This document shows positions 1,042 through 27,855 of a stretch of 31,836 nt of DNA, piece by piece (positions within the stretch are counted from its first letter, which is position 1; every line of letters starts with the position of its first letter). The notes under the pieces were generated by a model that saw nothing but the letters and a program-made list of their open reading frames with translations, made no database searches and was not told where the DNA came from. Where the stretch lies: contig CAZIGU010000001.1 of the NCBI GenBank assembly GCA_964538545.1, positions 1 to 31,836 of the forward strand, given 5' to 3'. Made by a program: the position numbers and the translations under genes. Source of the stretch: an uncultured Candidatus Peribacteria bacterium (GTDB lineage: Bacteria; Patescibacteriota; Gracilibacteria; BD1-5; UBA6164).

Positions 1042-1866
1042 TTATAAATTATTTCATATATTTGAATATTTTAATTTTAGTTTTATAGTAGTTTTTTTTG
1101 TATAAGGTGGATTTTCTTCATTTTCTTCAACTAAAAACTCTTTTGGTTTTTCTATTAGTATAAAATTATTTTCAGGTGTTTTTTGTATATAGTTTATAAA
1201 ACTTGCTGATAAAGCTCATCGAGATCATTTAATAAAACTTTTTAAATCTGAAGATCTAATAATTGAAAAATCTGTAGTATAAAAATCACAAGTAGTTTCT
1301 AAAATATTTTTATTATCTAGCTTAAAATTATAACAGACTATTTGTTTATCTTCTGGTGAAAATTTATTTTTCATAGATAAAAAATCTGATATTATCTCTA
1401 AAGTTTTTGTTTTTGAAGAAGGATATGTAGTTTGTAAAAAAACTGCTTCTTTACTATCTTTAAAACTATTTATTTCATAAATTCACATAAAATTTTTTGA
1501 GATACTTGATGTTATTTCTTTTTCTAGTTCTTCATTTTTTTGAGAATAATATTTATGTAAAGCAAAAACTGAAGATCATAAATCCAAATCTGATTCTAAG
1601 TCTTGTTGTATTAAAGGTTTTATAGTATCTAAAAAAGGAGAGTTTAACATATTTTCATTTTTTTGAATATATACATATCAATATACAGTTATTGCAATAA
1701 AAACAGAAAAAATCATAATATAATTAGATATTTTTGCTCATAAAGACGCATAGTACAATTTATCTTTTTTTTGTACTTTTTTTTCTTCTTCAACTTTTCA
1801 AAAATCCAATTCTCAAGACAATTCTTTAAAAATATTTAAATCATTATTATTTTGTTCTTCTGGCAT
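1042..1866 (-). CDS. Hypothetical single-pass membrane protein (274 aa), possibly PilN-like
   Basis: ATG 1866 to TAA 1042, open with TGA=Gly. One TM segment near the N-terminus; lies directly upstream of the PilO-like gene. Function is inferred only. Confidence 0.6.
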
Positions 1867-1947: not shown

Positions 1948-4590
1948 TTAAGAATTTATTTTTTCTTTAATCAAATCTAAAAAACTCTGGGAGCTTATGT
2001 GTTTTATTTTTGAATCTTTTGGAAAAGATAAGTACATATCTTTTCACCATTTAGTGGTAAACAATCTATCATCTAATATAATAAAAATTCATTTATCATT
2101 TTTAGTTCTTATAAGCCTTCAAAATCATTGTTTTGTTTTTATAATAGTTTTTGGTATAGAATATTCTAAAAAAGGATCTTTATAAAATCTTGATCTAGCT
2201 AAAAAAACAGGATCTTGTGGGTTTAAAAAAGGGAATTTATGCATAATAAGATATTTTAAATCTTGTCATGGTATATCTATTCATTCCCAAAAACTATCTG
2301 TTCATATAATAACTGAGTTATTAGGAGAAGATGTAAAAAAATGTATTATTTTTGTTTTAGAAGCTCATATATTTTGAGCTAGTAAAGATATATTTTCTTT
2401 TGATAACTCTTGTTTTAAATATATAAAAAAATTTTTTATACTAGAAAAAGATGTTGTTAAAATAAGGGTATTTCATTTTACTATTTTTAAAAAATTTAAT
2501 AAAAAACTATTTATATATGGATTATCGTATTTTATAGTTCATAAGTCTTGAGGGGATACTATAAGTACTTGTGAAGAATAGTCAAAATCAGTTTCAACAA
2601 AAGTATCTTTAAAATCTTGTAATCATAAAGAATTTTTAATATATGAAAAACTATCTCATATTCTGAAAGTAGCAGAAAGTAAAGTTATGGAATCTATTTT
2701 TGACCATAAAAAATTTTGTAAAAAATTTGATATGTTTAGCATAGTATATGATAAATAATTATTTCAATTTTTATTGAATCAAAAAATTGGTATATATTTA
2801 TCATAATTTTCTATATCTAAAGTATTTTTAATAACTGTAAAATAATCGTTTAATAAAGAAATATATTTTTGTATTTTTAATAATTTTTCTTCATTATTTG
2901 AAAAAATAAAATTTATATGATTTATATCTTGTAATGTTTTGTTAAAAATATTTTGTATATCGTACTGAATAAAAAAATCTTTTTGTATAAGTATTTCTTG
3001 ATTATCATTTTGATAATTTGATTTATGTGTAGTATAGTCTGATAATAAATCAAATATTAAAGATGTAGTTGATAACATATTTTCAAAGTATATGTCTATA
3101 TTGTCTAAGTTAATTTTATTTTTTAATATATATTTTTTTATATTAAAAAATACTTTATTTAAGTCATCTATAGTAAATTTTGTTTTTAAAGTTTCTGTTG
3201 TTATATCTTCTAAATTGTGTGATTCATCTATGATGAGATTTTCTATCTGTCAAAAAAGTCTAAAATTTGAAATGGATTCATTTATTAAAATATTGTGATT
3301 TATAATAACAATATTTGAATTTAATGATATAGTTCTAGCTTTATAGGTATATTCATAATAAAGATAATCGTTTTCTTTTGAAAGAGTAAATTCATTGTCT
3401 GAAGTTATTTCTTTTAATATATAATTTTCTTGTGGATAGAAATTTAACTCTTCTAGTTCTCAATATTTTGTTTTAAAAATCCAATTTGTTATTTTTGAAA
3501 TACAAAAAATTTGATTTATATCAAAATCATTATTATTTAATATATAACTTAAAAAACTATAGACTCACAAATAGTTATTTATTCATTTTAATTTAAAATA
3601 AGAAAAATCTAAATTTAAGTTATTTTTTAGATATTCTAAATCTTTAAAATAAATTTGATCTTGAAGTATTTTTGTTTTTGTTGAAATAAATACTTTTTGA
3701 TTATTTTTTATAGAATATAAAATTGAAGGTATTAAATAAGCAAAAGTTTTTCAGACTCAAGTAGGAGCTTCTATAATATATTTATCTTTTTTTTGTAAAT
3801 TTTCTCATATTTGAAAAGATAGTTTTAATTGATTATCTCTTTTTTCTATTTTTGAAAAACTATTAAATTTATTTTCTATTTCTTCTTTTGAAAAATCAAT
3901 ATTTTCATTTGTATATATTTGATTTTTAAAATCTAATTCATCATATTTTTTTATTTGATGTAATAATATTTCTATATATTTTATATAGTCTATATTTTGT
4001 ATATCTCAAAACAAATAGTCTTTTAAAAAAACTATACTTTTATCTTGTGATTTAGAAAATATATATTTTAAAGGTTGTTTTTGGTTTATAGAAAGATTTA
4101 AAATATTTTGTTTTAATTTAATAAATAATTTTACTGTTGATAAAGTATCTGACAAAGCTCTATGCTCATTGAAACTTCATAATCAAAAATAATCTATTAA
4201 AGATCATAAATTTAATGATTTTTGTTCTATTATAGAAAAATTTGCTAGATAAAAAGTATCTATAAAAATATTTTTTTCAAAAGATATATAATTTGATAAA
4301 AATCAAATATCAAAAGATACATTATGTCAAATTATAGGTAAATCTCATATAAAATCTGATATTTTTTTTATTATTTCTATATCAAGTATTGGTCGAGTTT
4401 TTAAGTCTTCATTTGATATATTTGTAAGATTATATATAAAATCTGATATTTCTATTTGTGGATTTATAAGAGTTGAAAAAGTGTCGATTATTTCTCAAGA
4501 ATTATCGTCAAATTTAACAATTGCTATTTCTATAATTTTATCTTTTTTGTTATCAATTCATGAAGTTTCTAAGTCTAATGCTATAAACAT
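1948..4590 (-). CDS. dinG: DEDDh 3'-5' exonuclease fused to DinG-family helicase (880 aa)
   Basis: MFIALDLETSG (ExoI), GHNVSFD, HRALSD; Walker A EAPTGVGKTFAY; DESH; motif VI QGFGRLIR. Supplied ORF 2779-3078 is an in-frame fragment. Confidence 0.92.
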
Positions 4591-4599
4591 AAATATAAA

Positions 4600-5013
4600 T
4601 TATTTTTTAAATACATATTTATCATATGTAAAAAATTTTAAAAAGAAAATAAAAGTAGTAACTAAAAAAATTATTAAGTATAAATAAATTTCATGGAAAT
4701 AATTTGAAATATAAATAGTTAATAAATAATTAGATAAACTAAATAAAAAAAGGAAAAATATGTATTTTAAAAAAATAAAAAAATCATATTTTACTCAAAA
4801 AATTATTTTTAAAGAAGTTAAAAAATTGATAAAACTTATAATTAAGATAACTATAAAATAAGAATATTCTTTTGATATGTAAAAATAATTTATAAGCACA
4901 TATGTAAGTCAAATACTTATAAGATAAGTTAAAAATCAAAAAAATAGAAATTTCAAAAATTTTTTATTATTTTTTAAACTATTAAAAATTATACAAAATC
5001 TTGTTTTACTCAT
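4600..5013 (-). CDS. GtrA-like small four-TM membrane protein (about 137 aa; start could be TTG 4956)
   Basis: Open frame with TGA=Gly filling the gap between dinG and the pseudouridine synthase. Four hydrophobic stretches; ends YDKYVFKK, typical of GtrA-family proteins. Confidence 0.55.
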
Positions 5014-5702
5014 ATTTTATCAAATAAATCTTTTAATTCTTTTTTTGTTAAATGTTTATATTCTCAAATTTGTAAATCTCAAAGTAAAATATTTTCTATT
5101 CTAATTCTTTTTAATTTTTTTACTTTAGATCAAACAGATTCTACCATTCTTCTTATTTGTCTATTTCTTCACTCTGTAATAGTTATACTAAATTTTCAAG
5201 AAGATATACGTTTAACTAAAGCTTTTTTTGTATAACTTCAAAGTATAAAAACTCAAGAAGATATTTTGTGAAGTTGTTCATCTGTAATAGATCAAAAAGT
5301 TTCTACTATATATTCTTTTTCATGATTATATTTAGGATGCATCAAATAATTTGCTAATCTTCAGTCATTTGTTAAAAGTATAAGTCAAGTTGTTGGTTTA
5401 TCAAGTCTTCATATAGGGAAAACTCTTTTGTCTATGTCTATAACATCCATTATAGTTTGTTCTCAAATATTTGCACAAGTAGTTACAACTCAAGCAGGTT
5501 TATTTAATTTAAAATATAAAAATTCTTGTCAATTTTTGATTATTTTGTCATCAAATTGTATTTTATCTTTTTCTGGATCTATTGTTTGTCATATTGTTGC
5601 TAATTCTCAATTTACTTTTATATATCAATTTCTTATATATTCTTCTGCTTTTCTTCTAGAGCATACTCAAGAATCTCGAAGATATTTATGTATTCTTATC
5701 AT
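4989..5702 (-). CDS. rRNA pseudouridine synthase, RsuA/RluB/RluF family with S4 domain (237 aa)
   Basis: KYLxDSGVCSRRKAEE (S4), LNKPAGVVTT, catalytic VFPIGRLDKPTTGLILLTNDG, HPKYNHEKEY. Confidence 0.93.
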
Positions 5703-5704
5703 TT

Positions 5705-6673
5705 TTATATTTTAAAATTTAAAGTTTTTGTTTCTTTTAATTCTCACGAAATTGTAAATCATGAAGCTTTTTTATGACCTCATCATCAGTATTTAAAAGC
5801 TATAGAGTTTAAATCAATATCATCTCTTAAAGTACGAAGAGATCATTTTATAAAATCTCATTTTTGTGTCAAAAACACTACATATTTCACTCATAAAACT
5901 CAAGTAAGCAAGTCTAAAACTCATTTAGTATCTTCATAGTTCAAATTATAATCATCTAAAGAAGTTTTATTTATATATGCATACAAAATATTTTCCTCAT
6001 CTATAAAGCTATTTGATAATATTTCTCAATATAATCTAAGTGAATTTAGTTTTTTTGTTTTAAAAATCTTATCTACTATCAATTGTCTATCTCGACCTAA
6101 TCATACTAGTTTTGAAGCTATAAAATATGTTATATTATTTGTATTTGATGTCTGAAAAGATAAAGAATCTGTATATAATCAAGTAAGTAAATATGTTGAT
6201 GAAATTGAAGTAATTTTATATCATAATAAATAAAATATCTCCCAAATTATCATAGTTGTTGATGTATATGTAGCATTTAGTATATTTTGTTTAGAAAACA
6301 AAGTATTACTTATATGATGATCTATTGATATAGTATTGTATTTTTTTTCAAATAATTCTTTATACTCTTCTAAAAATCAAGTAAGAGATGGATTTGAAGT
6401 ATCAAGAAAAAAAATCAAATCATAATCTTTTGGATTAAAAGATTTTTTAAATTTATTTATGTTTAACAAAAAAGAAAAATTTTTTGGAATATCGTCTTTA
6501 CAAATTAAATCTATATTTTTATATAAAAAATTATCTTTTATTATTTGATATAATCACATAGTTCGTCAAATAGTATCTAAGTCTGGGTTTATGTGACTTA
6601 CTATAGCTATATTTTTTGAATTTTTTATTTTATTTATTATTTGTGAATATATTTGGATTTTTTTTGAAATCAT
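5705..6673 (-). CDS. DHH/DHHA1 family phosphoesterase (NrnA-like oligoribonuclease/pAp phosphatase, 322 aa)
   Basis: SHINPDLD, IDHH, GLYTDS, GSLRT and GGGGHKKASG motifs. Confidence 0.9.
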
Positions 6674-6678
6674 TTAGT

Positions 6679-6713
6679 AAAAAGTTATTTTTAAGGTTTA
6701 AAAATAACTTTTT
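6679..6713 (-). terminator. Intrinsic terminator-like hairpin downstream of murB
   Basis: Perfect 16-bp inverted repeat AAAAAGTTATTTTTAA / TTAAAAATAACTTTTT with a 3-nt loop; AT-rich, so weak. Confidence 0.5.
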
Positions 6714-6755
6714 TTATAATTTTTTCAAATTTTTTGATATTGATTTTATGAAAAT

Positions 6756-7646
6756 TTAATTTTTAATAATCCTAACTTCATTTTCTAAAACTATATTATG
6801 CTTTTGTTTTATTTTATTTAAAGCTAAATCAATAAGATATAATAAATCTTTATGGTTTCAGTTTTTTTCATATGTCATCAAAAAATTTCGATGTTTATCT
6901 GAAAAATATGCATTATTATAAGAAAATCATTTTAATCAAACATCTTCTATCAAAAATCAAGCTGAATAATCTTTTGAAGGGTTTTTAAAAAAACTTCAAC
7001 AAGAATTTCAAATAGGTTGAATTTCTTTTCTAAATTTTATATTATCTACATATGAATGATATTTTTCTATCTTTTTTGATAAATCAAATACAATTTTTAT
7101 TATAAAATAGTTTCAAGTTTGTTTGAAAATACTATTTCTATATGAGAAATTTATATCTTTTTTATACTTAGTAATAATTGTTTTATTTTTTATATCATAT
7201 ACTAAAACTTCTTTTAAGTTATTTTCTATTTCAAGTCAAAAACATCAAGCATTTCAAAAAACTGCTCATCAAACACTTCAAGGTAATCATATAAATCTGT
7301 GAAATAAATCTTGATTAAAATCTTTTTCTAATTTTTCTGATATATCCCGTATTTTTTCTCAAGAAAAACAAGTAAGTATTTTAGTTATTTCATCATAATG
7401 ATATCATAATAGATTATTTTTTATAATTATTCCATTATATTCATAAAAAGAAAATAACATATTTGTTCAAGATCATACAAAAAGAATTTTTAAATCATTT
7501 TCTTTAGCAAATTCATATATTTCTCATATATGATAAACATCGTCTAATTTGTTTATTTCAAAATAGTATTTTGTGAATGCTTTTGTTTTAAAATTTGATA
7601 ATTCTGTTATTTCTATATTTTCTCTTAAATAAGATAATTTTTTCAT
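6756..7646 (-). CDS. murB: UDP-N-acetylenolpyruvoylglucosamine reductase (296 aa)
   Basis: VGSGTNMLF, GLPGSVGGAVFGNAGCFG, SCGSFFKNP, SAGFLIE, KHxNF, C-terminal LENEVRII. Confidence 0.93.
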
Positions 7647-7650
7647 AATT

Positions 7651-10476
7651 TTATATAGTATTTTCTAAATATTTTTTTATATATTCTCAAGTTATACTTT
7701 TTTTGTTTGATATAACTTCTTCTACAGTTCAACTAGCGACTATATATCATCATTTATCTCAACCTGTAGGTCAAAAGTCTATTATATAATCTCGATTAGC
7801 TATTATATCCATATTGTGTTCTATAACTAATACTGAGTTTCATTTTTCTACTAAAGAATTTAAAATTTTAAGTAATTTTTGAGTATCTTCAAAATGAAGT
7901 CATGTAGTAGGTTCATCTAATATATAAAAAGTTTTTGAAGTAGATCTTTTTGATAACTCTGTAGCTAATTTAATTCTTTGAGATTCTCAACCTGATAATG
8001 TAGTAGAAGATTGTCATAATTTAATATATCCTAATCAAACTTGATTAAGTATTTCGAGTATTTTAAATATTTTGTTTTGAGATTTAAAAAACTCCATTGC
8101 CTCTACTATGGTCATATCTAAAACATCTGATATACTTTTTCATTTAAATTTTATTTCTAAAGTTTCATTATTAAATCTTTTACCATCACAATATTCACAC
8201 TTAACATAAACTGGTGGCAAAAAATGCATTTCAATTTTTTTAACTCAATCTCAGTCACAATGATTACATCTTCAATCACGAGTATTGAAGCTAAATCTTC
8301 AAGGTCAGTATCATCTAGTTTTTGCATCTATAGTTTCTGCAAATAAAGCTCTTATATGATCAAAAACTCAAGTATACGTAGCTGGATTACTACGAGGAGT
8401 TTTTCATATAGGAGACTGATCAACTACTATTACTTTATCTATATATTGTAGTCAAGTTATTTTTTCAAACTGTCCAACTTGTCTAGTAGCTCAATTTAAT
8501 TCATTTAATAAATATGGAGATAAAATATAATTAACTAAGCTAGATTTTCAACTTCATGAAGGTCAACAAATAACAACTAAATTATTTAAAGGTATTTTTA
8601 CATCTATATTTTTTAGATTATTTTGTTTAGCTTTAAAAATCTCTAAGTAATTATTTATAAATCTTTTTTCTTTTTTTATAAGTCTTGGTATTTGATTTGA
8701 TAAGTATTTTCAGGTAGTTGTTTGATTGCTTTTTAGTATTTCTTCATATATTCAAGAAAATATAACTTCTCAACCATAAATTCAAGCTCATGGTCAAATA
8801 TCTATTATATAATCTGCATTTTTCATAATATCTTCATCGTGTTCAACTACAATAAGAGTATTTCATATATTTTTTAATTTTTTTAAATTCTCAATTAACA
8901 TATCATTATCTCTTGGATGTAGTCAAATAGATGGTTCATCAAGAACATAAATTATTCATTCTAATTTAGTTCATATTTGCGTAGCTAATCTAATTCTTTG
9001 AGACTCTCAACCTGATAGTGTAGCTGATTTTCTAGATAAAGAAATGTAAGAAAGTCATACTCAAGATAAAAACTCTAATCTTTCTTTTATATTTTTAAAA
9101 ATATTTTTAACTATTTTTTCTTCAGATTCATTTAAAATAATTTTATCAAAAAAATCATATAACTCACTAACAGGTAAAATACTTAAATCTCATATATTTT
9201 TTCATCTAAAATATACAGATAAACTTTCTTTATTCAATCTATATCAATTACATTCTGGACAATCTATAGTGGAAATATAGTTTCATAGTTTTTCATTATC
9301 TACATCTGAAGAATAATATTTATCATTTAAAATATTTATTATTCATTTATATTTTGATATGTATTTTTTTCAAGACATATTATTTTCTGGAGAGATTTCA
9401 TATAAATCTTCTCAAGTTCAATAAAGTATTATATCTCTTTGTTTTTTTGTTAATTTAATATATGAAATATTTGAATCTATTTTATGTTTTTTGCAAACCT
9501 TTAAAACTAATTCATGATAATAATTACTTCAAAACCAAGGTAAAATAGCTCATTCTGCAATAGTTAATCTAGGATTTATAATTCTTTCTTCTAAAAAAAC
9601 TACTTTTTCTCAAAGTCAATGACAAGTTTCACAAGCTCAAGAATGACTATTAAAAGAAAAACTAGATATATCTAATTCTTTTGGAGTATGTAAACAATTA
9701 TTACAAACAAATACTGTTGAATAATTTTTTGTTTCTGTATTGTTTTCATTTAAAATAAAATCAATACTTAAAAATCAAGAAGAAATTTTTAATCAAAGGT
9801 CTATTGAATCTTTTAACCTTTTTAAATCAGATTCTTGAAAATCTTTTACTATAAGTCTGTCTATAACAACAAAAACATTATCAAGTATTTCTATGTTTTC
9901 TATTTCATCATTTATAGAATAAATTTTATTTCATATAGCAAATCTAATAAATCATAAATTTAATACTTCTTTTTTTATAGATTCTAGATTTTTTAATTTT
10001 CATTTTAAAATTTCTGTTTTTATTATAAATTTAGTATTTATTTGGTAAGTTAATATAGAATCTATAATTGATTGTATTGAATCTTTTTTTATTTCACTTC
10101 AACATTTTACACATTTTCTATCTCATAGATTTAAAAATATAAGTTTTAAATAATCATATATTTCAGTTATAGTTCAAACTGTAGATCTAGGATTACGATT
10201 TGTTGTTTTTTGATCTATAGAAATAGTAGGAGAAAGACCTGATATTTCTCTATATTTAGCTTCTTCTCAAACTCATCATATAAACATACGAGCATAAGTA
10301 GATAGACTTTCTAAATATTTTTGTTGTCATATATTGTATATAGTTTTAAAAGCTAAACTAGATTTTCAACTTCATGATAATCACGTTATAACTGTTAGTT
10401 TATTTTTAGGTATTTTTATATCTATATTTTTTAAATTATGTGTATTAACTCATTTTACTTCTAAAAAATCTGACAT
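7651..10476 (-). CDS. uvrA: Excinuclease ABC subunit A (941 aa)
   Basis: [45 protein letters not shown], two LSGGESQRI signatures, Zn-finger Cys pairs, [20 protein letters not shown]. Confidence 0.97.
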
Positions 10477-10518
10477 TTTTATTAAATTATTAAAATATAC
10501 TGAAGATATATTATATTG

Positions 10519-10550
10519 AAAAAAAAATATATTCAAGGAATATATTTTTT
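10519..10550 (-). terminator. Intrinsic terminator-like hairpin between the Zn-ribbon gene and uvrA
   Basis: Inverted repeat AAAAAATATATTC-aag-GAATATATTTTTT at the stop of the 10549-11127 gene. Confidence 0.5.
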
Positions 10551-11127
10551 AAAGGTGATGATTTTTTAGAAAATTATTTAAAAAATTTAAAATTTTTATA
10601 AACAAATTATTATCGACAAAAACCATTTTACTTCATGAATTTAATTTTTGATAAATAGAATTTATTTTTAATCATTTTATATCTACTTGATTTAAAACAT
10701 AATCTTCATCTGTATGAAAAAAATCTATTATAGTTTTTGAATTTTTTACAAAACTATAATCTATAAAAATTTCATATTTTCTTCAAGATATTTCTATTTT
10801 TATGGACTCTATTTTTCAATTTTTTTCTAGTATTTTATATATATTTATTCAAGATTTAAAATAAGATATTTTTTTGTATTTTTTAGTATCTATAATTTCA
10901 TCTTTTTTAGAAGATTCTTTTTGATATTGAAAAAAATGCTGTTCACTTACTTGATAATAACAATTTTTACATCAATATCAATCTAAAAAAGAATTTTCAT
11001 CACAATTAGGACATAAATTGTATGAAAGTATTTCTTGTGATATGTCTGATATTTGTTTTATGATTTTATCTTTTTGAGAAGTATTTTTTGTATTTGACAA
11101 TAATTTATTTTTATTATTTTCTAACAT
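10549..11127 (-). CDS. Hypothetical protein with a Zn-ribbon-like CPNC-x8-CKNC motif (192 aa)
   Basis: ATG 11127 to TAA 10549, open with TGA=Gly; LCPNCDENSFLDGYGCKNC. Confidence 0.65.
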
Positions 11128-11170
11128 AATAATTATAATATATAATATTTATTTCATTATAACACAAAAT

Positions 11171-11872
11171 TTAATTTGAAGCAAATATTAAAGCTATTAT
11201 ATGTTTAACTCAATTTTGTTTTAAAATTTTAGATAATTCATTTATAGTGGAACCTGTAGAAAAAACATCATCAACTATTATAAAATCATAGTCTTTATAT
11301 TTAAAAAATTCTTTTTGATTTAATAAAAAAGCTCATTTAATATTGTTTACCCTATCATTTTTAGACAATTTTGATTGTGATTTTGTCCATTTTAATTTTT
11401 TAAAAATTTTTGAATTATATGGTATTTTAGTTTCTTTTGATAAATAATAAGATATAAGTTCTGCTTGATTATATCATCTAATAAACTTTTTTAAAAAATA
11501 ACTTGGTGGAAAAATAATTATTGTTTTAGAAATATCTATATTTTTATTATGTAAATATAATTTTTCTTTTAAATAATAAGCTATATCTTGGGAAATATCT
11601 TTTCTATTATAATATTTTAAATCTTTTATAAGTTTTTGTATAACTTGATTATTATAATTAAAAAGTATTATAACTTGATCATAATACTTTTTTTGATTTT
11701 CACAATAAGAATGAACTAAAAAATCTTTAGAATATGTTTTACAAACTGGACATATTTCTTTATGATATCATATTTTAAAAACACAATCTAAACATAAATA
11801 TGAAGATTTTTTCTTACAATTATAACATCTTTTTGGTGATATTAAATCTTTTATAAAATCTAAAATTCTCAT
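11171..11872 (-). CDS. comF: ComF/ComFC family competence protein (PRTase fold with N-terminal double Zn ribbon, 233 aa)
   Basis: SPKRCYNCKK...LCLDC...CPVC at the N-terminus; PRPP-binding loop IIVDDVFSTGSTINE. Confidence 0.9.
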
Positions 11873-13245
11873 AATATCATTTTTGATAAACTATCAACTC
11901 AAAATCATGTAGCTCAAGGATTAAAATATCAGTATTTTTCCTTAACAAAAGAAACTCAAGCTATATCTATATGAACAAAAGATTCATTATTTAAGCAAAA
12001 ATTATATAAAAATGCTCCTCACATAGTAGATCAAACATGTATTCAAGAAGTAAGATTTTTTAAATCACTTATAATTCATTTTGTTTTATCTACATAAAAT
12101 TTAGAAAAAGGTAATTCCCAATATTTTTCAAAAGTAGTATTTTTTAATAATGAGTTTATTATTTGTTTATTATTTCACATAATTCAAGCATAATTGTATC
12201 ATAAAGCTACCATACAAGCTCAAGTAAGTGTAGCAACTGTTATGATTGAATTTAAGTTATAATTTTTTGATAGATAACTTATTCAATCTGCTAAAACAAG
12301 TCTTCATTCTGCATCAGTGTTGATAATTTCAACTGTTTTTCAAGAATATGAAGTCAATATATCTCATGGTCTATAACTTTCTCAAGATATAGAATTTTCA
12401 GCTATAGGTAAACAAGCTATTATGTTGCATTTTATATCTTTCTCATCAAGTTCTTTCATCATAAATAAAACACTTGCACTTCAAGCCATATCATCTTTCA
12501 TAGTAAACATATTGTCATCTAATTTTATATTTAATCATCAAGTATCAAATGTAATTCATTTTCAAACAAATCAATATGTAGGTAAATTTTTATCAACTAT
12601 TCTTTCTAATATAACCATTTTTGGCTTTGAAGAACTTCACATTCAAACTGAAGTTATTAGATTTAAATTATGTTTTTTTAAATCTTCATATTCTAATACT
12701 TTTAATTTAGTGTTTCTAAATTTTATTTGTCTAATAAAAGATAAATATTTATCTGGAGTTTTATCTATAGATGGCTTATTTACTAAATCTCTGCAAGAAA
12801 TTATATTATTTATAGTTGATAATCTGTTGTCTAAGTATTGTCTAAAATTATCATTACAAATGATATTTAAATCTATTTCATTTTTTTCTTTTTTATAAAA
12901 ATCAAAATCATATTTTCATAAAACAACACTATCAAGCAATATATTATCTACTTGATATTCTATAGTTATATTTTTTCAAAAAAGATCTATGTTTTTTCAT
13001 ATAAAATACTCTAAATTATCTTGAGTATCAAGATAAAATAAAAAAGTAATATATTCTATATCTTCTCTATCTAAATAAAATTTTAAAGCAGTATTTTCTT
13101 GTTTAGAAAAAACTTCATCTATTTTTGAATAAATATTTTTAGAAATATCTAAAAAATTATATTTTTCTAAATCTGATCTAGATTTTAGTAAAACTATTAA
13201 GTTTGTGTTTTTCAAGTCTGAAAAAGAGTTTTGTATATTTATCAT
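11860..13245 (-). CDS. pepA: Leucyl aminopeptidase, M17 family (461 aa)
   Basis: FVGKGITFDTGGLNIK, MKDDMAGSA, YRPGDI, GKTVEIINTDAEGRLVLADG. Start ATG 13245 (alternative TTG 13293). Confidence 0.95.
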
Positions 13246-13277
13246 AATTTTTTGTATTTTAAAAAATATTTTAAAAG

Positions 13278-14606
13278 TTATTCTAAATCTCAAGTTAATC
13301 TATTATAAGTTAAAAAAACTTGTATAGAAATTATAAATAATAATACTCAAATATATAAAAATTCAAATTTATTATATATAAAATAATTTATTATAGTATA
13401 TATCAAAATTATATAATTATAAAAATATAAAAAGTAAGTATCTATCTTATTTTTTATAAAATATGTTAATCAAATTATTAAAAAAGATAAAATAATTCAA
13501 AAAATTAAAAAATATAAACTTTCTTTTAAAATTAAATTATATTTTAATATAGTAAAATATAATAAATAAATAAATACACTTATTCATAAAAAATAAGAAA
13601 CATAATTTGTATATTTTTTATGAATATATAAATGAATAAATGTTAATATAAAAAGTAATATATATATTATATAATAAAATTTATACAAGAAAAATCAAAA
13701 TCAAAACAAAATTGAAATATATAAAAAAATTATTCAAATATATTTAAAAATTATTTTATCATTTTTAAATAATTTAATTTTAAAAATAAAATAAAAATAA
13801 ATTATTCATATAAAAAAACTTATGATAATAATAGAAAAAAGAACACTATAATGATATAAGTAATCATAAAAGTAAAATAATAACAAAAAGAAAAAATACA
13901 AACTAAAATGCAATATTAAAATATTATCAAAACTAGATTTTTTTGATATTTTTTTATCATAATAAAGCAATATTATAAAAATAAATAATAAAACTATTCA
14001 ATTTATTAAATCTATATAATTAAAGAAATTATTATCAAAAAGTAATATATAAAAATAATTTCAAATATAATAAAAAGAAAAAATAATTGAATTTATTCTT
14101 AAAAGTTTTTGTGAAAAAAATGAATATTTTGATAAAAAGTAAAAAAGTAAAAATCATATATTTAGTACGAGTATAAAAATTTGAAAACTAATTTTCTCAA
14201 AATCTAAACTTATCAAATATAATGATACATAAAAAAGTAAAAATCATAAATAATAAAATATTATATTCAAAACATTTTTATTTTTTATTTTATCTATCAA
14301 AGAAAAATTATTTATTTTAGAAGATTCTTTTATCTCATCTTCCAAAACTCAAGAAGAAAAATATATAAATAAAAAAACTCATATTAAAAAGAAAAAAATA
14401 GATTCTATAATTAAATTTCAAAAAAAAGATTGAATAACCAAGTTTGATTGATCTGAAAAAATTATACTATCTTTTAAAGATAAATTCAAAATATTTTTAT
14501 CATAATTTGTATCATTTAAAAAAATATCTTTTTTAATAGAAAAAACATAAAAAACATAAAATATAAAACTATATAAAAATGTTATTAAAAAAAATATAAA
14601 TCTCAT
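13278..14606 (-). CDS. Polytopic membrane protein of unknown function (442 aa)
   Basis: Frame traced codon by codon from ATG 14606 to TAA 13278 with no TAA/TAG; many hydrophobic F/I/L/Y stretches. Confidence 0.7.
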
Positions 14607-14666
14607 AAAAAAAGTAGTTAATACTAACTACTTTAATATAAATAAAAAATAAATAATTGCAAAAAT

Positions 14667-16040
14667 TTAAAAATTTATAAAAAATATTCAAAATATAAAT
14701 GATAATATAAAGAAGTTTATAATCATAGTTATCATTCATCTTGATAAATAAACAAAAAAAACTGCTAAATTTATACTTATAATCCATATTAAAAATGAAA
14801 TATTTAAGTTTATATTAAAATTAAATACATTATTTAAAATAAACACTAAAGATATAAATATAGAATATAATAAAAATATGTTTATAAAATATTTATGTAA
14901 TATTAAAATCAAATCTAAAATCAAATCTGAAATATAAGAATATCATTTTACAACTTTAACATAAGAAAAAGTTGATCAATTCATACGAGATTTTAAAATA
15001 AATAAATTATTTTTTATAATTTGTTTTTTAATACTTAAATCTTCTAAAAGTTCTTTATTTTCTTTTTTTTGTATAAAAATTTTAAATAAATTTTTTAAAC
15101 TTTCTTTTTCTATTTCTTTTAGTTTTTCTTTATATTTATCATACAAAATTTTGGATTTTAAATAAGACGATGATTTTGTATCTATTACTATTTTTTCTTT
15201 TTTTTCTTGTTTAAGTTTGTTTTTTAAATCTTCAAATATTTTTTTAAGTATATATCATATATCTTTTTCTTTTTCTATGAATTGTGTTTTAGATCAGGAT
15301 TCTTTTAATAATTTATTTGTTTCTTTAACTAATTTTCTATATTCTTCATCTTTTTTATTTTCAAGTATTTCAAGTTCTAATTCTCATATTTTTGATAAAG
15401 CAAATTCTGATATTTGATAAAGTTTAGATACATTTGTAGAAGTTTTTAATCTAACTATGTTGTTATAAATATCTTTTATTTTTTCTTTTCTAGAAAAAGT
15501 TATTATATCATTTTCTTGAATTTCTATAAAATATTTTAATTTAACTAAAACTTTATCAAGTAAAACATATGCTTTTTGTAATTCCTTTTGTAATCAATAT
15601 TTTTCTGTTAATTCTTCTTTTACTACTTTTTGTTTTTTTTCTTGTTCTTTTTGTTCTAATTCTAATTCTTTTTTATGAGTTTCTAAATAAACTTTATATT
15701 GCTCACTTAATGTTTTTATATTTTTTTCTTTTATCTCTAAAGAATCATTTTTATTTTGATATATATATAATAAATCAAATTTTAATTCATCTTTTATTTT
15801 TAAATAAGCTTTAAAAATATCATCTGAAAATATAGTTCATTGTTTTATTTGTCAATTTTGATTTATATCAAAATAAAATTTAGATCAAGATTTTTCTGTT
15901 ATTTCTCAAACTTCAATCACATTTACTATAGAAAAACCCTCTTTATGAAGTTCTTCTTTTAATATATTTTCTGATTCTCGTTTTCTTATAATATCAAATT
16001 TTTTAGTTCATTTGATAACTGAAACTTTAAAATTTTTCAT
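14667..16040 (-). CDS. Hypothetical protein: N-terminal duplicated PilC-N-like motif, coiled-coil middle, C-terminal TM helices (457 aa)
   Basis: Frame traced from ATG 16040 to TAA 14667; K/E-rich heptad region in the middle; 2-3 TM segments at the end. Confidence 0.7.
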
Positions 16041-16055
16041 ATTTTAGTTTTTTAA

Positions 16056-16313
16056 TTATACTTTATTTGACAAAAATTTATCAAAACAATCATTGCAAAT
16101 TTTTTGAGTATCTTCTTTTGATAAATTTTTTGAAAACTCTCGTGTTTTAAATAAATCAGATAAAAATTCTTTAGAAAAATCTATTGAACTTTTTATTCTG
16201 TCTCATAAATTTTTTAAAGCTTGATTTACATCTCAATTTTTTAAACTATCTATTAAATTATTAGAATCTGTATTTAATTCATTTTTTGTATTTATTTTAT
16301 TTTCAACTGACAT
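16056..16313 (-). CDS. Small hypothetical protein (85 aa)
   Basis: ATG 16313 to TAA 16056, open with TGA=Gly, tightly packed between neighbours. Confidence 0.55.
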
Positions 16314-16316
16314 ATA

Positions 16317-16628
16317 TTATATATTATTTAATAAAAATCAAAAACTATTTATTTCTTTTTGTTTTTCAATTACTTCTTTTTTTCTAAGACCTGAAATTTT
16401 TGTAAAATTATTTTTTCTTATATCTTCAATTTCTTTTTGTTCAACATTTCAAACAAAATCTTGTAAAGAAAAATATAATTTTTCCAATCATATTTCATCT
16501 ATATTTTCTAAAGCTTCTAAATATAAACTTTTTTGTTTATCATTTATATTTAAATTTTCTATTATAGTTTTTACTATTTTTTTCTTTTTAGAAACTTCAG
16601 AATATTTTTTAAAAATATTAAGTATCAT
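16317..16628 (-). CDS. Hypothetical protein (103 aa)
   Basis: ATG 16628 to TAA 16317; first gene of the leftward block. Confidence 0.6.
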
Positions 16629-16965
16629 TTTATTTTTTATTAAAAATTAAATATATTTTATTTTATCATAATTTTATTTTTTTTACAAATTTTTTATTTA
16701 TATTTATTTATTATATATATTTATATAAATAGTAATAGTAATAATAATGAATGTTAAAAAGTAAAATTATATAAATAAAAGAAAAAATTGTATATTTATA
16801 AATATATATAAATAAAAAATAAAAAATTAAACTTATTTTAAAGCAAAATAAGTTTTTTTAACAAAAATTTAACAATAAAAAATAATATATATTGACTTGC
16901 TTTTAATCAATATTTTTATATTATAAACTTGTTAAATAAAAAAAATATTTTTTAAACATTGAAAG

Positions 16966-18348
16966 ATGGAAGATATTAAAAATACTAAAAATAATAAAAG
17001 TTTTTTACATTGATTTATAATCTTTTTAACAGCTTTTTTACTTTGATTTATAATAAGTCAAAATTTAGACATACTTTTTAACAATGATAGTTTAAAGTCT
17101 AATCAAATATCTGAAGAAAATACAGATTATTCTGATGAAGAAGATAAAAATTTAAAAGAAATAATAAAAGAAACTCTTTTAAGTAAAGATTTAGATTTAA
17201 ATTATTTTTGGGAAGTATATAATTTAATAAAAAATAATTATTATTCTTCAGATGAAATAGATAAAAAAGAATTACAATATGGAGTTATAAAATGACTTGT
17301 AGAATCTTTATGAGATAAACATTCAGAATTTTTTCCTCCCGTAGAATCTAAAGAATTTAATAATACTTTAAGTTGAGATTTTGAGTGAATAGGAGCTGTT
17401 ATAGATAAACATGATTTATGAGTTATGGTAGATAGAGTTATTAAATGATCACCTGCTTTAGAAAATGGTATATTAAAATGAGATATTATAATAGAAGCAA
17501 ATGAAGTTAAATTATCTTGACTTGAAGTTGATGAAGCTGTTAAAAATATAAAATGACCTGCATGAACAAAAGTAGTTTTAAAAATTATTAGAACTTGAGA
17601 AAAAGATATTTTAACAAAGGAAATAACAAGGCAGAAAATAACTATACCTTCAGTTGAAACAAAAGATATAAATGAAAAAGAAATATGATATATATCTTTA
17701 AATATGTTTTGAGAAAATACTTCAAAAGAATTTTTTGAAATACTTCAAACTTTTAATAATAATAAATACAAATGAATTATTATTGATTTAAGAGATAATT
17801 GATGAGGATATTTGCAAAGTGCAGTTGAAATATTGTCTAATTTCATAGAAAAAAATAAGGTTTTAGTTACTACAAAATATAAAGAGTCATCTTTAAATGA
17901 ATCATATTTATCTGAAAATAATTGAGTTATTTTTGATAAAAAAATAGTTGTTTTAATAAATTGAAACTCTGCTTCAGCTTCTGAAATAACAGCTTGAGCT
18001 TTGAAAGATTATAATAAAGCAATATTAATTTGAGAAAAAACTTATTGAAAATGATCAGTACAACAACCTTTTGACTTAAAAGATTGAAGTATGTTAAAAC
18101 TTACTATAGCAAAATGGTATACTCCTAAAGATATAAATATAGATCATGAGTGAATAAAACCAGATATAGAAGTAAATTTTAAAAAAGAAGATTTTGAAAA
18201 TAAATATGATAGACAGTTAGAAAAAGCAAAAGAAATACTTAAAAATTATATAAAAATAGAAAATATATCCGTAGTTATAAATGAAGAAAATATAAGAAAT
18301 TGAACTTGAACTACTATGACTTGAAGTGTAGAAAATGAAAAAAAATAA
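16966..18348 (+). CDS. ctpA: Carboxyl-terminal processing protease, S41A family with PDZ domain (460 aa)
   Basis: N-terminal TM, FEGIGAVI, IIDLRDNGGG, catalytic NGNSASASEI, GEKTYGKGSVQ, KLTIAKWYTP. Confidence 0.94.
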
Positions 18349-18360
18349 TTATTTAACAAT

Positions 18361-18389
18361 AAAGTAAAGTAAAATACTTTACTTTTTTT
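18361..18389 (+). terminator. Intrinsic terminator after ctpA
   Basis: AAAGTAAAGTA-aaa-TACTTTACTTT followed by a T run. Confidence 0.65.
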
Positions 18390-18447
18390 ATTGATTATTT
18401 GATAAAAATAATATAATAAAATTAGATATTTTTTTAATTTTATTATT

Positions 18448-19680
18448 ATGTTACAAAATATAGATATTGATATTTATAATCTTATTTTAAAGGAAACTGA
18501 AAGACAAGAAAATGAAATAGAGTTAATAGCTTCAGAAAATTATGCTTCAAAAGCAGTTTTAGGAGCATCAGGAAGTATTTTATCTAATAAATATAGTGAA
18601 TGATATCCTTGAAAAAGATATTATGCATGACAAGAAAATATAGATTTAATAGAAGAATTAGCTATTTCTAGAGCTAAAGAAATATTTTGACGAGAATATG
18701 TAAATGTTCAACCATTATCATGAAGTCCTGCAAACTTAGCAGTTTATTTAGCTTTTTTAAAACCTTGAGATAAAGTTTTATGATTATCTTTGGATCAATG
18801 AGGTCATTTGAGTCATTGACACCCTCTTAATTTTTCATGACTTTTATATGAAATAATACCATATTTTTTAGATAAAGAAACTGAAACTATAAATATGGAT
18901 GAAGTAGAAAAAATAGCTTTAGAAACAAAACCAAAAATGATTATAGCTTGATTTTCTGCATACTCTAGAAATTTAGATTGGAAAAGATTTAGAGAAATTG
19001 CTGATAAAGTATGAGCTATTTTAATGGCAGATATAAGTCATATAGCTTGACTTATAGCTTGAGGAGTTTTAGAAAATCCAGTTCAATATTGTGATGTTAT
19101 AACTACAACTACTCATAAAACTCTTAGAGGTCCTAGATGAGCTATTATTATGAGTAAAAAGGAATTTGAAAAAGATATAGCAAGACGAGTTTTTCCTTGA
19201 GTTCAATGAGGTCCTCACGAAAACTTGATTGCTGCAAAAGCAGTTGCTTTTAAAGAAGCTTTAAGTGAAGATTTTAAAAAATATTGTAGACAAGTTGTAG
19301 ACAACGCAAAAGTATTGTCTAATTCTTTAAAAGATTATTGATTTAAAATCATTTCAGGTTGAACAGATAATCATATAGTTTTGGTTGATGTTTTTTCTAG
19401 TTTTTGAGTTACTTGAAAAGAAGCAGAATTTGCTTTGGAAAAAGTATGATTATCAACAAATAAAAATATGATACCTTATGATATTAGAAAAGCTTTAGAT
19501 CCATCTTGAATAAGATTATGAACAGCACGAGCTACAACAAGAGGAATGAAAGAAAATGAAATGTTATTTATATCAAGAATTTTCTTGGAAACTATAAAAA
19601 ATAAAGATAATGAAGATAAGTTAAAACTATTAAAAGAAGAAGTTTTAAATTTTTGTAAAAAATATCCTATTTATAAATAA
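18448..19680 (+). CDS. glyA: Serine hydroxymethyltransferase (410 aa)
   Basis: LIASENY, NKYSEGYPGKRYYAG, NVQPLSGSPAN, GGHLSHG, PLP lysine [29 protein letters not shown]. Confidence 0.97.
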
Positions 19681-19681
19681 T

Positions 19682-20331
19682 ATGTTTTTAAAAGAAATAA
19701 TTCAATTTAGTAAAGATAATTGGTGGATTTTTATAATATTTTTTATTTGTTTACTAATAATTTGATATACAAATACTTGAAATATTTATGAAGTTTTTTA
19801 GTTTTTTCTATTCATTTTATATGAGATATTTTTATGATGATTATGTGAAAATATTATATATTGTGAGAAAACAAAAAATGAAATATTTTTCAAATATCAT
19901 CAACTTCTATTTTTGCACTTCTTTGATTGTATGCTTGAATTTTTAATTGAAAATGATATTATTTACAACCACAGTTAATTTTTATATTTGCTTGAATAAA
20001 ATGATTTATAAGTCATAAAATATCAGATTTTTATAAAAATATAATATTTATAATACTTTTTATAATTACACTTTTTATATACTTTTATTTTTCTTTATTT
20101 ATAGATTTATCTTCTATAATTCAAATAATTTGATTTTTATCACTTTCAACATGTCTTTTTATACAAAATAAAAATATAATTTTCTTTTGAATTTTATTTA
20201 TAACAATATGATCTTTTTTAAGTATTTATGTATCTTTTTTAAATTCAAATATAAAATGAATAGATATATCGTATTTTTTACTACCTTTGACAATTTTAGT
20301 GTTTTATGTTAAATCTTTATGGAAAAAATAA
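19682..20331 (+). pseudogene. Multi-TM membrane protein interrupted by a single frameshift (real lesion or homopolymer sequencing error)
   Basis: ATG 19682 sits right after the glyA stop and hits TAG at 19799. A protein-like continuation resumes in another frame at 19801 and ends at TAA 20329-20331. One extra T in the T6 run at 19794-19799 restores about 216 aa. Confidence 0.6.
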
Positions 20332-21359
20332 TTTATATATTTTTATTAAGTTTGTTTTTGTCTATTTTTTTTGTTTTCATTTTAAAAAAAATATTTTATC
20401 ATTTTAAAATACTTGATAACCCTATAAAATACAAAAAAAATAGACAAGCCATACCATATAGTATGTGAATTATTTTTTTTATATCATTTTTTATAATGAG
20501 TTTTTTATTTTTAGAACATAATTATAAAATTTATTTGATATGGTTTTTTTGATTTTTAATAACTTTGGTAAGTTTTTTTGATGATTTATACAATGTTAGT
20601 CCAAAAATTAGACTTCTTCTTCAAATAATTATATGATTTATTATATGACTTACAGCTATAAAAATATGATATTTAACATCGCTTTTTTGATGAATAGATT
20701 TACAAAATTATAGTATATTTTTATTTTCATATGAGATATATATAATATCAGCTTTATTCACAATGATATGGTATGTTTTTATATTTAATGCTTTAAATTG
20801 GAGTGATTGAGTAGAATGAAATCGAGCTTTTTTAAGTTCTATAATTTTTTTAATAGTGTCTATATTGGGTTATATATTGTACTTAGATTGAGATAAAAAT
20901 GCTATAAATATAACTTATATATGAATTATACTTTTTGCTATAGTATTGCCATTTATATTTTTTGAATATAAAAATCATATACTCATGTGAGATAGTTGAA
21001 CTATGTTTTTATGATTTATGGTTGCTACTTTGTGAATAGTTTTTTGATGAAAAATAGCTACTATAGTTATAGTCTTTTGAATATATTTTGTAGATGCTAT
21101 ATATGTTATATTTAATAGATTAAAAAATCATAAAAATCCTTTAATTTGAGATAATACTCATTTTCATCATAGACTTATGTCTATATGAATGTCTAAAATA
21201 CAAATAATATTTTTTGTTTGATTTTTTTCTTTTTTATTTTGATTTTTTTCTTTATTTTTAGATAAAATATGAAAAATATTTTTATTTGTTTTTATAGTTT
21301 TTTTTGTTATATTTACACCAAAAATAATTATTAAATTTATTAAAAATGAAAAAAAATAG
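20319..21359 (+). CDS. Glycosyltransferase family 4 (WecA/TagO/MraY-like undecaprenyl-phosphate sugar-phosphate transferase, 346 aa)
   Basis: PIPYSMG, LVSFFDDLY, FNALNWSDG, GDSGTMFLG, GDNTHFHHRL (WecA/TagO-like); about 11 TM segments. Confidence 0.88.
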
Positions 21360-22017
21360 TTTTTGATTTACATTTGTAGAGATGATAGTTGTTATTTTTA
21401 TAATATCAATAACTTGAGTTGTAGCTATGAATTCTTTGTTTTCTTCTTTTGATAAACAAGTTTGAAATATTCAAAAAAATGAAATAATAAATTTCATAAA
21501 TTCTTTTGATAATAAATTATGAAAAAATATTACAGATTATGAATTGATTTTTTCTTGATGATTAGATTATTTAATTTATAAAACAAATAATAATTATAAA
21601 TCAGGTTTAGTTAGTTATTCTTTTTCTTGATATACTTGAACCTTTACAAACACTGTTTCATGAACTTTGATAGAATATTATTTTTATAATAATAATAAAC
21701 TCATAAATAAAGATATTTCTTCTCGAAGTTGAGCTATTTTAAATTATGATTTTTCTATTTTAAAATGAAATAGTTATATAAAAACATTTGTTGATTCTAA
21801 AAGATTAAATGATATATGAGTTTATTTTTTTTCATCTGATGATAAAAATCCTTTATTTATAAAAGAAATAAAAAATTGAAATAGTACACTAACTTGAATA
21901 ACTATAAAAAAATCTATTTGATGAAATAAAATAATACAACAAAATTGAAATAATATATCTAGTTGAACTATAATTTTTGATACTAAATACTGAGAGTTTA
22001 ATATAAATATACCTTAA
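21346..22017 (+). CDS. Prepilin-type N-terminal cleavage/methylation domain protein (minor pilin-like, 223 aa)
   Basis: MKKNSFG|FTFVEMIVVIFII class III signal; the cleavage-site Gly is encoded by TGA. Confidence 0.85.
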
Positions 22018-24477: not shown

Positions 24478-24495
24478 TTACTAATCTTAAAATTT

Positions 24496-25158
24496 ATGTG
24501 ATTAGAAGATTTTACACCTTCGGAATCTCAAGAAGGTTCTAAATCATCTCGAGAAGCAGCAGAGAAATATAGACAATCAGTTAAAAAACGAGCATCTTGA
24601 CTAAAAAAAATATCAAAAGATGAAAAGAAAGCCAGAAAACATGATTTATTACTTTTAGAGTTTTTGACAGAAATAATAAGAAATAAAAAATATGATATTA
24701 TATTAAATGATTTATTTAAAGCTTTGGATTCTTCTAAAACTTCAAATTTTATAATATGAATATTATCTTTAATATATTTACCTATAAGCAATAAAATAAG
24801 AACTTTAAACAACTTAGAAAATATAAGTTTTGATAAAAAACCATATTCAGAGGAATTTGTTTTTGATGATAATAATTTAGATTTAGAATTTAAAAATAGA
24901 ATAAATTTATGGATAGAAGATATAATTTATATATTAAAATATGATTATTCTTCAGTTCAAATAAAAAGTCTTTTAGAATCTATTAAAAAAGAAGATATTG
25001 ATTATGAAAATATTATAAAATTTGTTTCAAAAATATTTCAATTTTTCTTTAAAGAATTTAATATATATATATCAGAAGAAAAAGCATATTCATATTCTTC
25101 TTTTATAGTAAAAGAAATATATAATAAAATAAAAGATATAGAAATAGAGAATATATAA
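24496..25158 (+). CDS. Hypothetical protein (220 aa)
   Basis: ATG 24496 to TAA 25158, open with TGA=Gly; charged helical N-terminus; two in-frame CGA codons. Confidence 0.7.
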
Positions 25159-26686: not shown

Positions 26687-26718
26687 AAAATAAATAATTA
26701 TTTAAAATAAAAATAAAA

Positions 26719-27855
26719 ATGAATATTGATATAAAAAAAAATGATTTAAACTCCATTTTTGAAGCTATAAAATCAAAGTTTATAAACAAAAAAAATATAA
26801 AAATTTCTCAAAAACAAAAAATATATTTTTTTGATTCACTCTATGATCTTATAAATTCTTGAATTCCTATAACAAACTCTTTAACTATAATGTTATACCA
26901 AACAAAAGATAAAAAAACTTCATATATTATATCACAAATACTTAAAAATATAAGTTTATGAAAAAAAATAGAAGAGAGTTTTAAAGAGTTTCCAAGAGTT
27001 TTTTCAAATTTTGATGTATATATGATAAAAATGTGAGAAGTGACATGAAAACTTGCAAATTCTATTGATAATATAAGACAAAGGGAAGAAAAAAATGCAA
27101 ATATAAAATCAAAAGTTATATGAGCTTTGATATATCCTAGTATAGTTATATCTCTTAGTATAGCTATGGTAGTTTGATTTATGGTTTTTGTTATACCAAA
27201 AGTACAAATAATGTATTCTGACTCAAATGTTAATTTACCATCTTTGACACAAAAAGTCATATATATGTCAGAATTTTTACAAAAAAATTATATTATTTTG
27301 ATGTTTTTATTATTTTTTATAGTCTTTCTTTTAATTTTATTTAAAAAATGAAAAAAAACTAAATATTATTTTGATAAAATTATATTACAAATTCCTCTTT
27401 TTTGACCACTTATAAGAAAAAAAATATTAACAATCTTTTCTAATACATTGTGAACTTTATTATCAAATTGAATTATGATAAATGAAGCTTTAGGTATAAC
27501 TAAAAAAAGCTTAGAAAATGATTATTATGAAAGAAGAATAGACGAAATTTTAGTCTCTATTTGAGAAGGTATTCCACTTAGTGAACTTATGTGAGTTAAA
27601 AAAATAAAAGACTCTAAACAAGATGAATATTTTCCTATAGAATTGTCTAGTATAGTAAAAATATGAGAACAAACATGAAAACTATCAAGCTTACTTTTAA
27701 AAATATCTCATAAGTTTGACAAGGAAATAGACACAGTTGTAAAATGACTACAACGAGCAATAGAGCCTATAGTTATTATACTTGTTTGAGTTATAGTTTG
27801 AACTATGATAATGGCAATACTTCTTCCATTTTTTAATATGGTAAATGTTGTTTAA
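26719..27855 (+). CDS. pilC: Type II secretion system F family / type IV pilus platform protein (378 aa)
   Basis: Two GspF repeats: DLINSGIPI...GEVTGKL...ALIYPSIV and LLSNGIMI...GEQTGKLS...IEPIVII...ILLPFF. Confidence 0.92.

Follow-up and report, generated by a model that had tools for sequence, protein, structure and literature searches.

The arginine codon CGA was examined in a complete contig of 31,836 bp from an uncultured bacterium of the BD1-5 group (CAZIGU010000001.1 of assembly GCA_964538545.1); the whole contig is called the window below. BD1-5, or 'Gracilibacteria', is the GTDB class JAEDAM01, and all of the closest homologues carry the annotation Candidatus Gracilibacteria or Altimarinota, those of the window's GlyA at ~80% identity and those of its TypA at up to 89%. 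Besides these two the window encodes UvrA, MurB, a DinG-like exonuclease-helicase, a pseudouridine synthase, a DHH/DHHA1 phosphoesterase, a WecA/MraY-family glycosyltransferase, a type IV pilin-like protein, a GspF/PilC-family platform protein and several hypothetical proteins, with gene identities backed by Pfam and solved-structure matches. Its G+C (GC) content is 19.3%, and coding is dense when TAA and TAG are the sole stops: coverage by open reading frames (ORFs) is 1.24 with TGA as a sense codon and 0.21 with TGA as a stop. An initial annotation of this DNA had proposed that TGA encodes glycine and that, on top of this, CGA has moved from arginine to alanine. Judging from codon positions in aligned genes, we conclude that CGA is very probably translated as alanine, wholly or mainly, in the organism of this contig and in several related very low-GC BD1-5 lineages, besides TGA = Gly; CGT, AGA and AGG remain arginine codons.

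The glycine part of the proposal is readily borne out. The ORF set holds 490 in-frame TGA codons and 45 GGN codons, making TGA the main glycine codon, and 56 of the 67 TGA codons in the UvrA gene fall on columns where glycine is the consensus across a set of 68 bacterial UvrA genes that use the standard code. The window's TypA protein seems to be encoded on a 2.2 kb Logan contig as well; the match is at 93% identity, and the shortfall would correspond roughly to TGA translated as Trp. The same ORF set contains 16 CGA, 1 CGG, 9 CGT, 0 CGC, 182 AGA and 9 AGG codons. Read as alanine, CGA would make up ~6% of alanine codons (16 CGA to 233 GCN). All CGA codons and the CGG are listed in Table 1; ten of the CGA codons had been listed in the initial annotation, each in frame where it was placed, and six are added here.

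Table 1. In-frame CGA and CGG codons of the window, with the residues found at the same position in related proteins
Codon	Position	Strand	Gene product (gene coordinates)	Context	Residue in related proteins	Pfam	First listed
CGA	1219-1221	-	conserved BD1-5 hypothetical protein (1042-1914)	FIKGS[CGA]GALSA	orthologues S,T,S,S,S,R	no match	here
CGA	4393-4395	-	DinG-like exonuclease-helicase, RNase_T exonuclease domain (1948-4599)	DLKT[CGA]PILD	Ala (GCN) in 6/6 BD1-5 orthologues	RNase_T, DEAD, Helicase_C_2	initial annotation
CGA	5676-5678	-	RluF/RsuA-type pseudouridine synthase, S4 domain (4989-5711)	KYL[CGA]DSG	Ser in 7/7 BD1-5 orthologues; S/A/A in solved RluF, RsuA, RluB		initial annotation
CGA	6092-6094	-	DHH/DHHA1 phosphoesterase (5705-6673)	VGLG[CGA]DRQ	Ala in 2/2 orthologues	DHH, DHHA1	initial annotation
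CGA	6563-6565	-	DHH/DHHA1 phosphoesterase (5705-6673), second site	DTIG[CGA]TMG	Ser in 2/2 orthologues	DHH, DHHA1	initial annotation
CGA	6888-6890	-	MurB (6756-7664)	SDKH[CGA]NFL	Ala in 7/7 BD1-5 orthologues; A/G/A/C in solved MurB structures		initial annotation
CGG	7347-7349	-	MurB (6756-7664)	GEKI[CGG]DISE	TGG (Trp) in 4/7 orthologues; others S,S,T		
CGA	7792-7794	-	UvrA, second ATP-binding domain (7651-10548)	IIAN[CGA]DYIIDFGP	Ala in 64/68 standard-code UvrA genes; BD1-5 orthologues A x6, S x1		initial annotation
CGA	15978-15980	-	conserved BD1-5 membrane or coiled-coil protein (14667-16043)	IIRK[CGA]ESEN	orthologues Ala 6/7, Ser 1/7		here
CGA	18691-18693	+	GlyA (18412-19680), site 1	EIFG[CGA]EYVNVQP	Ala in 117/120 homologues		initial annotation
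CGA	19186-19188	+	GlyA (18412-19680), site 2	DIAR[CGA]VFPG	Ala in 116/120 homologues		initial annotation
CGA	19528-19530	+	GlyA (18412-19680), site 3	LGTA[CGA]ATTRG	Ala in 117/120 homologues; CGA also in GCA_028713225.1 (L001) and a same-species Logan contig (L084)		initial annotation
CGA	20823-20825	+	WecA/MraY-family glycosyltransferase (20313-21359)	VEGN[CGA]AFL	orthologues T,F,F (uninformative site)	Glycos_transf_4	initial annotation
CGA	21724-21726	+	type IV pilin-like protein (21328-22017)	DISS[CGA]SGAI	Ile in the single orthologue; variable region	N_methyl	here
CGA	24550-24552	+	hypothetical protein (24478-25158)	SKSS[CGA]EAAE	no orthologue among loci compared		here
CGA	24589-24591	+	hypothetical protein (24478-25158), second site	SVKK[CGA]ASGL	no orthologue among loci compared		here
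CGA	27754-27756	+	type II secretion/type IV pilus platform protein, GspF/PilC family (26698-27855)	GLQ[CGA]AIEP	Lys in 4/4 BD1-5 orthologues	T2SSF	here

The initial annotation had placed the codons of GlyA, MurB and UvrA at family alanines by their motifs, and that is where the alignments put all five. At the three GlyA sites the three best solved SHMT structures read A/A/A, T/A/A and A/A/A. The four 'R' entries among the 120 homologues at site 2 are the window's own protein and three near-identical JGI proteins, and CGA was seen at this site in the DNA of the one JGI GlyA locus fetched (L083). The UvrA site is alanine in the two best solved UvrA structures, and alanine also stands at the paralogous position of ATP-binding domain 1 in the window's UvrA. 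The exonuclease codon, which had been called a weaker case, is in fact a strong one, with alanine in every orthologue. Other assignments were only partly sustained: alanine at the pseudouridine synthase site agrees with two of the three solved structures and not with the BD1-5 orthologues, while the first DHH site does align with alanine and the second, where either GS or GA had been expected, aligns with serine. The WecA-like site had been called compatible with alanine, and this was too generous given its orthologues; like the pilin-like site, it lies in a region that varies.

For a quantitative comparison, ORFs were called in 18 loci using code 25 (UGA = Gly) with CGA and CGG masked, and the proteins were aligned all against all. 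For each codon the consensus residue of the other lineages was recorded, which gave an empirical table of the probability of each consensus given the encoded amino acid. Fourteen of the window's CGA sites could be aligned, and the orthologue consensus is Ala at eight and Ser at three, with one site each for Phe, Ile and Lys (SAAAAAFIKSSAAA). It is never Arg, in agreement with the earlier statement that no CGA stands at an arginine-conserved position. With the likelihood of Ala set to 0, Ser scores -14.3, Cys -24.2, Trp -41.4 and Arg -45.7 nats, so that Ser and Cys, named from the start as less likely alternatives, do rank below Ala. At true Ala codons the other lineages agree on Ala in 62% of cases and on Ser in 9%. 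Of 1890 true Arg codons, 0.37% stand at columns with an Ala consensus, and from this rate the chance of eight Ala among 14 under Arg decoding is ~1e-16. As positive controls, CGA scored as Arg in the BD1-5 loci of 30-33% GC (L002, L003 and L044; n = 12, 11 and 21), and so did the window's own CGT (8 sites, RRRRRKKR), which had been expected to stay Arg, and AGG (9 sites). Since these controls give Arg, the Ala signal is specific to CGA and to the low-GC lineages. The core of the initial proposal, CGA from Arg to Ala atop TGA = Gly, was favoured by each comparative test run.

The same pattern occurs outside the window. Four further low-GC BD1-5 lineages, from separate assemblies, carry CGA at alanine columns, and their 21 pooled sites again score best as Ala (Ser -14.3, Arg -46.3 nats): (i) GCA_019454605.1 (L067, L109) has CGA twice in DnaE and once in TypA, in the G-domain motif DTPGH[CGA]DF, with alanine in the orthologues at all three; (ii) in GCA_028713225.1 (L001, L112), and in the Logan contig L084 from that species, the third GlyA site is CGA; (iii) the JGI contig L083 has CGA at the second GlyA site; and (iv) GCA_028702055.1 (L082) has five sites, aligned with G, A, V, G and S. 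In a set of 240 homologues of GlyA and TypA, where 'R' occurs at a column conserved for another residue, that residue is most often Lys, as would be expected, and next most often Ala (13 cases). Where the DNA was checked, 'R' at an Ala column is CGA, save in one TypA group (that of L110); the fetched locus of this group has no CGA, and its 'R' was set aside as a true Arg substitution. That a real Arg can stand at an Ala column in the L110 group means that the test is not circular.

Per 10,000 codons the window has 15.8 CGA, the other Ala-type lineages have 4-15 and the Arg-type lineages of higher GC (31-33%) have 22-39. In other low-GC relatives the figure ranges from 0 to ~3: 0 in L007 (none in 6121 codons) and in L110 (none in 4536), ~1 in L108 (about 0 in 6904) and 2.7 in L005 and L006. 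In the GlyA tree, the CGA at site 3 of GCA_028713225.1 and that at site 2 of the JGI species have no counterpart in relatives at 85-94% identity, which have GCN there, and therefore arose separately from the window's CGA codons at the same sites. The change from GCN to CGA thus seems to have recurred at the same positions of GlyA.

Several observations weigh against alanine decoding. The sample is small, with 14 informative sites from one contig. The nearest relative by TypA (L108, 89%) is practically free of CGA and offers no corroboration. Moving from GCN to CGA takes two substitutions through Gly or Pro intermediates, which is awkward at invariant alanines. The GspF site is the sole CGA site with a basic residue in its orthologues. 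A search for a CGA-reading tRNA of this lineage found none: the BD1-5 loci, ~330 kb in all, yielded three tRNAs, and anticodon UCG was not among them. Finally, the Ser consensus at 3 of the 14 sites (the pseudouridine synthase S4 site, the second DHH site and the hypothetical protein at 1219) exceeds the ~9% seen for ordinary Ala codons, and for this reason we keep among the alternatives that CGA is read as Ser, or ambiguously as Ala and Ser through a partly mischarged tRNA or two competing tRNAs. Serine is also the second-best amino acid for CGA in every low-GC lineage. It nevertheless trails Ala by 14.3 nats in the window and in the pooled other lineages alike, and the invariant-Ala sites of GlyA, UvrA, MurB, DnaE and TypA hold Ser almost never among hundreds of homologues. 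The Ser sites themselves are A/S-interchangeable in the wider families, as in the solved pseudouridine synthases, and we regard serine or mixed decoding as unlikely.

A different small residue, glycine or cysteine, could be inserted by way of a derivative of the clade's tRNA-Gly(UCA), which needs a single anticodon mutation (UCA to UCG) to read CGA. MurB homologues can have G or C at the KH-X-NF site, and over the five sites of GCA_028702055.1 Gly is ahead of Ala by a marginal 0.6 nats. In the window, however, Cys lies 24 nats behind Ala, while Gly trailed by 28 nats in an initial version of the test and was outside the best three in the final one; the pooled other lineages also put Ala clearly first, and these two readings are very unlikely. 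If CGA were still Arg, or effectively unassigned and stalling, its sites would have to tolerate Arg or the genes be in decay. Such a reading can appeal to the Lys at the aligned GspF position and to the Codetta call of Arg or '?' for CGA in the low-GC BD1-5 genomes of 2021 (PMC8629427), yet Arg is 45.7 nats behind Ala at the window's sites, which include conserved alanines of essential or housekeeping enzymes in otherwise intact and well conserved genes, and the contig's other Arg codons behave normally; we find it extremely improbable. Just as hard to credit is that plain table 25 is in use and that GCN became CGA through systematic errors in reads, base calling or assembly. Most CGA sites are GCT or GCA in relatives, as a swap of GC to CG at codon positions 1-2 would produce, and the window is a single metagenomic contig. 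CGA at Ala columns nonetheless recurs in contigs of further species and of different origin (NCBI assemblies, JGI, Logan). The same GlyA site is CGA in NCBI and Logan assemblies of one species (P0004 and P0035, 100% identical), and CGA also stands in three JGI proteins that are 99% identical. A base-calling motif artefact was rejected, the 16 CGA sites having no common flanking motif; one type of error would not suffice, with both GCT and GCA in the relatives at these sites; and CG dinucleotides in other frames translate normally.

The window's only CGG stands at a position that is mostly TGG in MurB orthologues (Table 1). The low-GC CGG sites, when pooled (n = 4; W, Y, W, I), score best as Trp with Arg 16.7 nats behind, and the CGG sites of L082 and L116 align with TGG in L110. 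These alignments suggest that CGG is probably Trp in the window's lineage, in line with the Trp calls published for CGG in some BD1-5. CGA and CGG would then carry different meanings in the contig. If CGG is Trp, the pair is split between two amino acids, and the tRNA for CGA would need to leave CGG unread, just as tRNA-Gly(UCA) in this clade must not read UGG.

Alanyl-tRNA synthetase recognises the G3:U70 acceptor pair of its tRNA and not the anticodon, and it is this that makes capture of a codon by alanine identity possible. Beyond the codon-to-column statistics, the controls and the lineage distribution, which are observed, we infer a tRNA, its charging and an order of events. Under AT pressure CGA would have become nearly extinct and the Arg tRNA with anticodon UCG would have been lost. 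A tRNA with a CGA-reading anticodon and alanine identity could then have captured the vacant codon; the initial annotation had supposed a tRNA-Ala with anticodon UCG and G3:U70, and descent from a tRNA of the Ala, Arg or Gly(UCA) lineage may be considered. CGA would later have spread to its present share of the window's alanine codons, including invariant alanines of GlyA, UvrA and MurB. Codon capture fits because CGA is nearly absent from low-GC relatives and published tables show no tRNA(UCG) gene for low-GC BD1-5 genomes. Both stages, the near-extinction of CGA and the loss of tRNA-Arg(UCG), are visible in sister lineages, the tRNA loss from the published tables. In these, low-GC BD1-5 genomes have 1-7 CGA per 10,000 codons, inferred as Arg or '?', and zero tRNA(UCG), while tRNA(GCG) is present and tRNA(CCG) mostly present (PMC8629427, fig. 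4 source data). We hold the tRNA mechanism less firmly than alanine decoding itself.

ARAGORN and a permissive Rfam scan found no tRNA genes in the window. The three tRNAs of the ~330 kb of BD1-5 loci, found on contigs fetched through GlyA, TypA and radical-SAM homologues, are Leu-UAA (L112), Ile-GAU and Gly-UCC (both L116). This number is far below the ~10 expected by a rough estimate (~40 tRNAs per ~1.1 Mb genome), and the clade's tRNA genes may be clustered elsewhere. No tRNA was found in the BD1-5 loci from a UvrA search of genome contigs, about 10 such loci being among the matches listed, most of which were standard-code bacteria. A metagenome-wide pattern scan was made for tRNAs with G1-G3, U8, A14, Y32, anticodon UCG, a T-loop and U70-C71-C72-A73. 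The 19 hits were all in contigs unrelated to this lineage, two of them AT-rich (L097 and L107); the same kind of scan on viral contigs gave high-GC hits only.

L107 represents, with L113, L114 and L115, a phage-like element of 19-20% GC that encodes Rnl1, a Pnk-like HD/AAA_33 gene, an M15 peptidase, PIF1 and T4 gp30.3, and whose best protein matches are uncultured phages of 630-735 kb. Its tRNA (9056-9131 in L113, 9633-9708 in L115) has anticodon UCG, G3:U70, A73 and U20, i.e. an alanine-type acceptor on a CGA reader. The element was rejected as the source of a tRNA for the window's lineage: it has no in-frame TGA, and its CGA varies with CGT and AGA between strains. L097 was rejected as well; it is 1.4 kb long, encodes Gly by GGN and shows no link to the lineage. 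Further tRNA-like sequences with G1-G3, U70-C71-C72-A73 and anticodon UCG lie in metagenome contigs of 42-59% GC (L090, L093, L098, L099 and L102-L106), some of them within tRNA clusters (L102 has seven tRNAs). Their sources could be further lineages, or phages, with CGA as Ala; alternatively, G3:U70 could be tolerated in some Arg tRNAs.

Two other features of the window concern neither codon. A 201-codon open frame at 16048-16650 (+), opposite and adjoining the gene region at 14667-16043, has a low-complexity translation rich in Phe, Ser and Ile, matched no orthologue and is probably not a gene. Within the S41 peptidase gene, 17947-18062 (-) weakly matches the Rfam family Rickettsia sRNA47 (29 bits, with a gathering score of 60), almost certainly by chance.

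Among known codes, the window shares with table 25 (SR1/Gracilibacteria, UGA = Gly) the use of TGA as the main glycine codon; CGA is arginine in that table, whereas here it behaves as alanine, with CGG probably tryptophan. In the yeast Pachysolen tannophilus the sense codon CUG has passed to Ala, captured by a tRNA-Ala with a mutated anticodon, which is possible as alanyl-tRNA synthetase ignores the anticodon; that case differs in being a eukaryotic nuclear code, in affecting a leucine codon and in having its tRNA and peptides demonstrated. The statement in the initial annotation that CGA and CGG have become Trp in Absconditabacteria is correct: this was reported along with CGG to Trp in some BD1-5, CGG to Gln or Trp in Firmicutes and AGG to Met (PMC8629427, Shulgina & Eddy 2021). 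Absconditabacteria are a sister group and resemble the present case in low GC, in depletion of CGN, in a UCG/CCG tRNA pair instead of inosine and in the codon affected, and the window's CGG is at a position that is mostly Trp in MurB orthologues. The outcome for CGA is different, Trp being 41.4 nats behind Ala and the consensus at none of the 14 sites, and where CGA and CGG were argued to move together (PMC8629427), the pair appears here to be split between two amino acids. A prediction of CGG to Ala in the Clostridia genus RGIG3102, with a tRNA(CCG) that has G3:U70 and lacks A20 (KACI preprint, bioRxiv 10.64898/2026.04.02.715157), is similar in that an arginine CGN codon moves to alanine in a low-GC bacterium by the mechanism proposed for the window. 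It differs in the codon (CGG, anticodon CCG), in the phylum and in the standard use of UGA. That work screened ~2.7 million assemblies and gave only known changes for JAEDAM01, leaving CGA to Ala unreported (bioRxiv 10.64898/2026.04.02.715157). Our full-text literature search, of incomplete coverage, likewise found no prior report of it, though one may exist elsewhere; the initial annotation had known of none.

Taking these comparisons together, we lean slightly towards a broader picture, namely a family-level clade of very low-GC BD1-5 with UGA = Gly, CGA = Ala and CGG = Trp. In it the CGA/CGG pair would have been split after loss of tRNA-Arg(UCG), through capture by alanine identity, and CGA would have re-entered the same invariant alanines independently in different lineages.

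To our knowledge, no bacterial sense-codon reassignment was known before 2021, and those reported are still all computational predictions. If true, CGA to Ala would be a new amino-acid outcome for this codon, and it would show that CGA can be separated in meaning from CGG where UGA and UGG are already separated. For the study of codon capture, sister lineages with CGA as Arg, as Ala or not at all would make an unusually clean comparison set. In practical terms, proteins predicted with table 25, 4 or 11 carry Arg where the cell very probably inserts Ala, at ~6% of the alanines in this contig. The mis-set alanines include conserved ones in GlyA, UvrA and MurB, so annotation, structure prediction and metaproteomic searches for these bacteria would all be affected.

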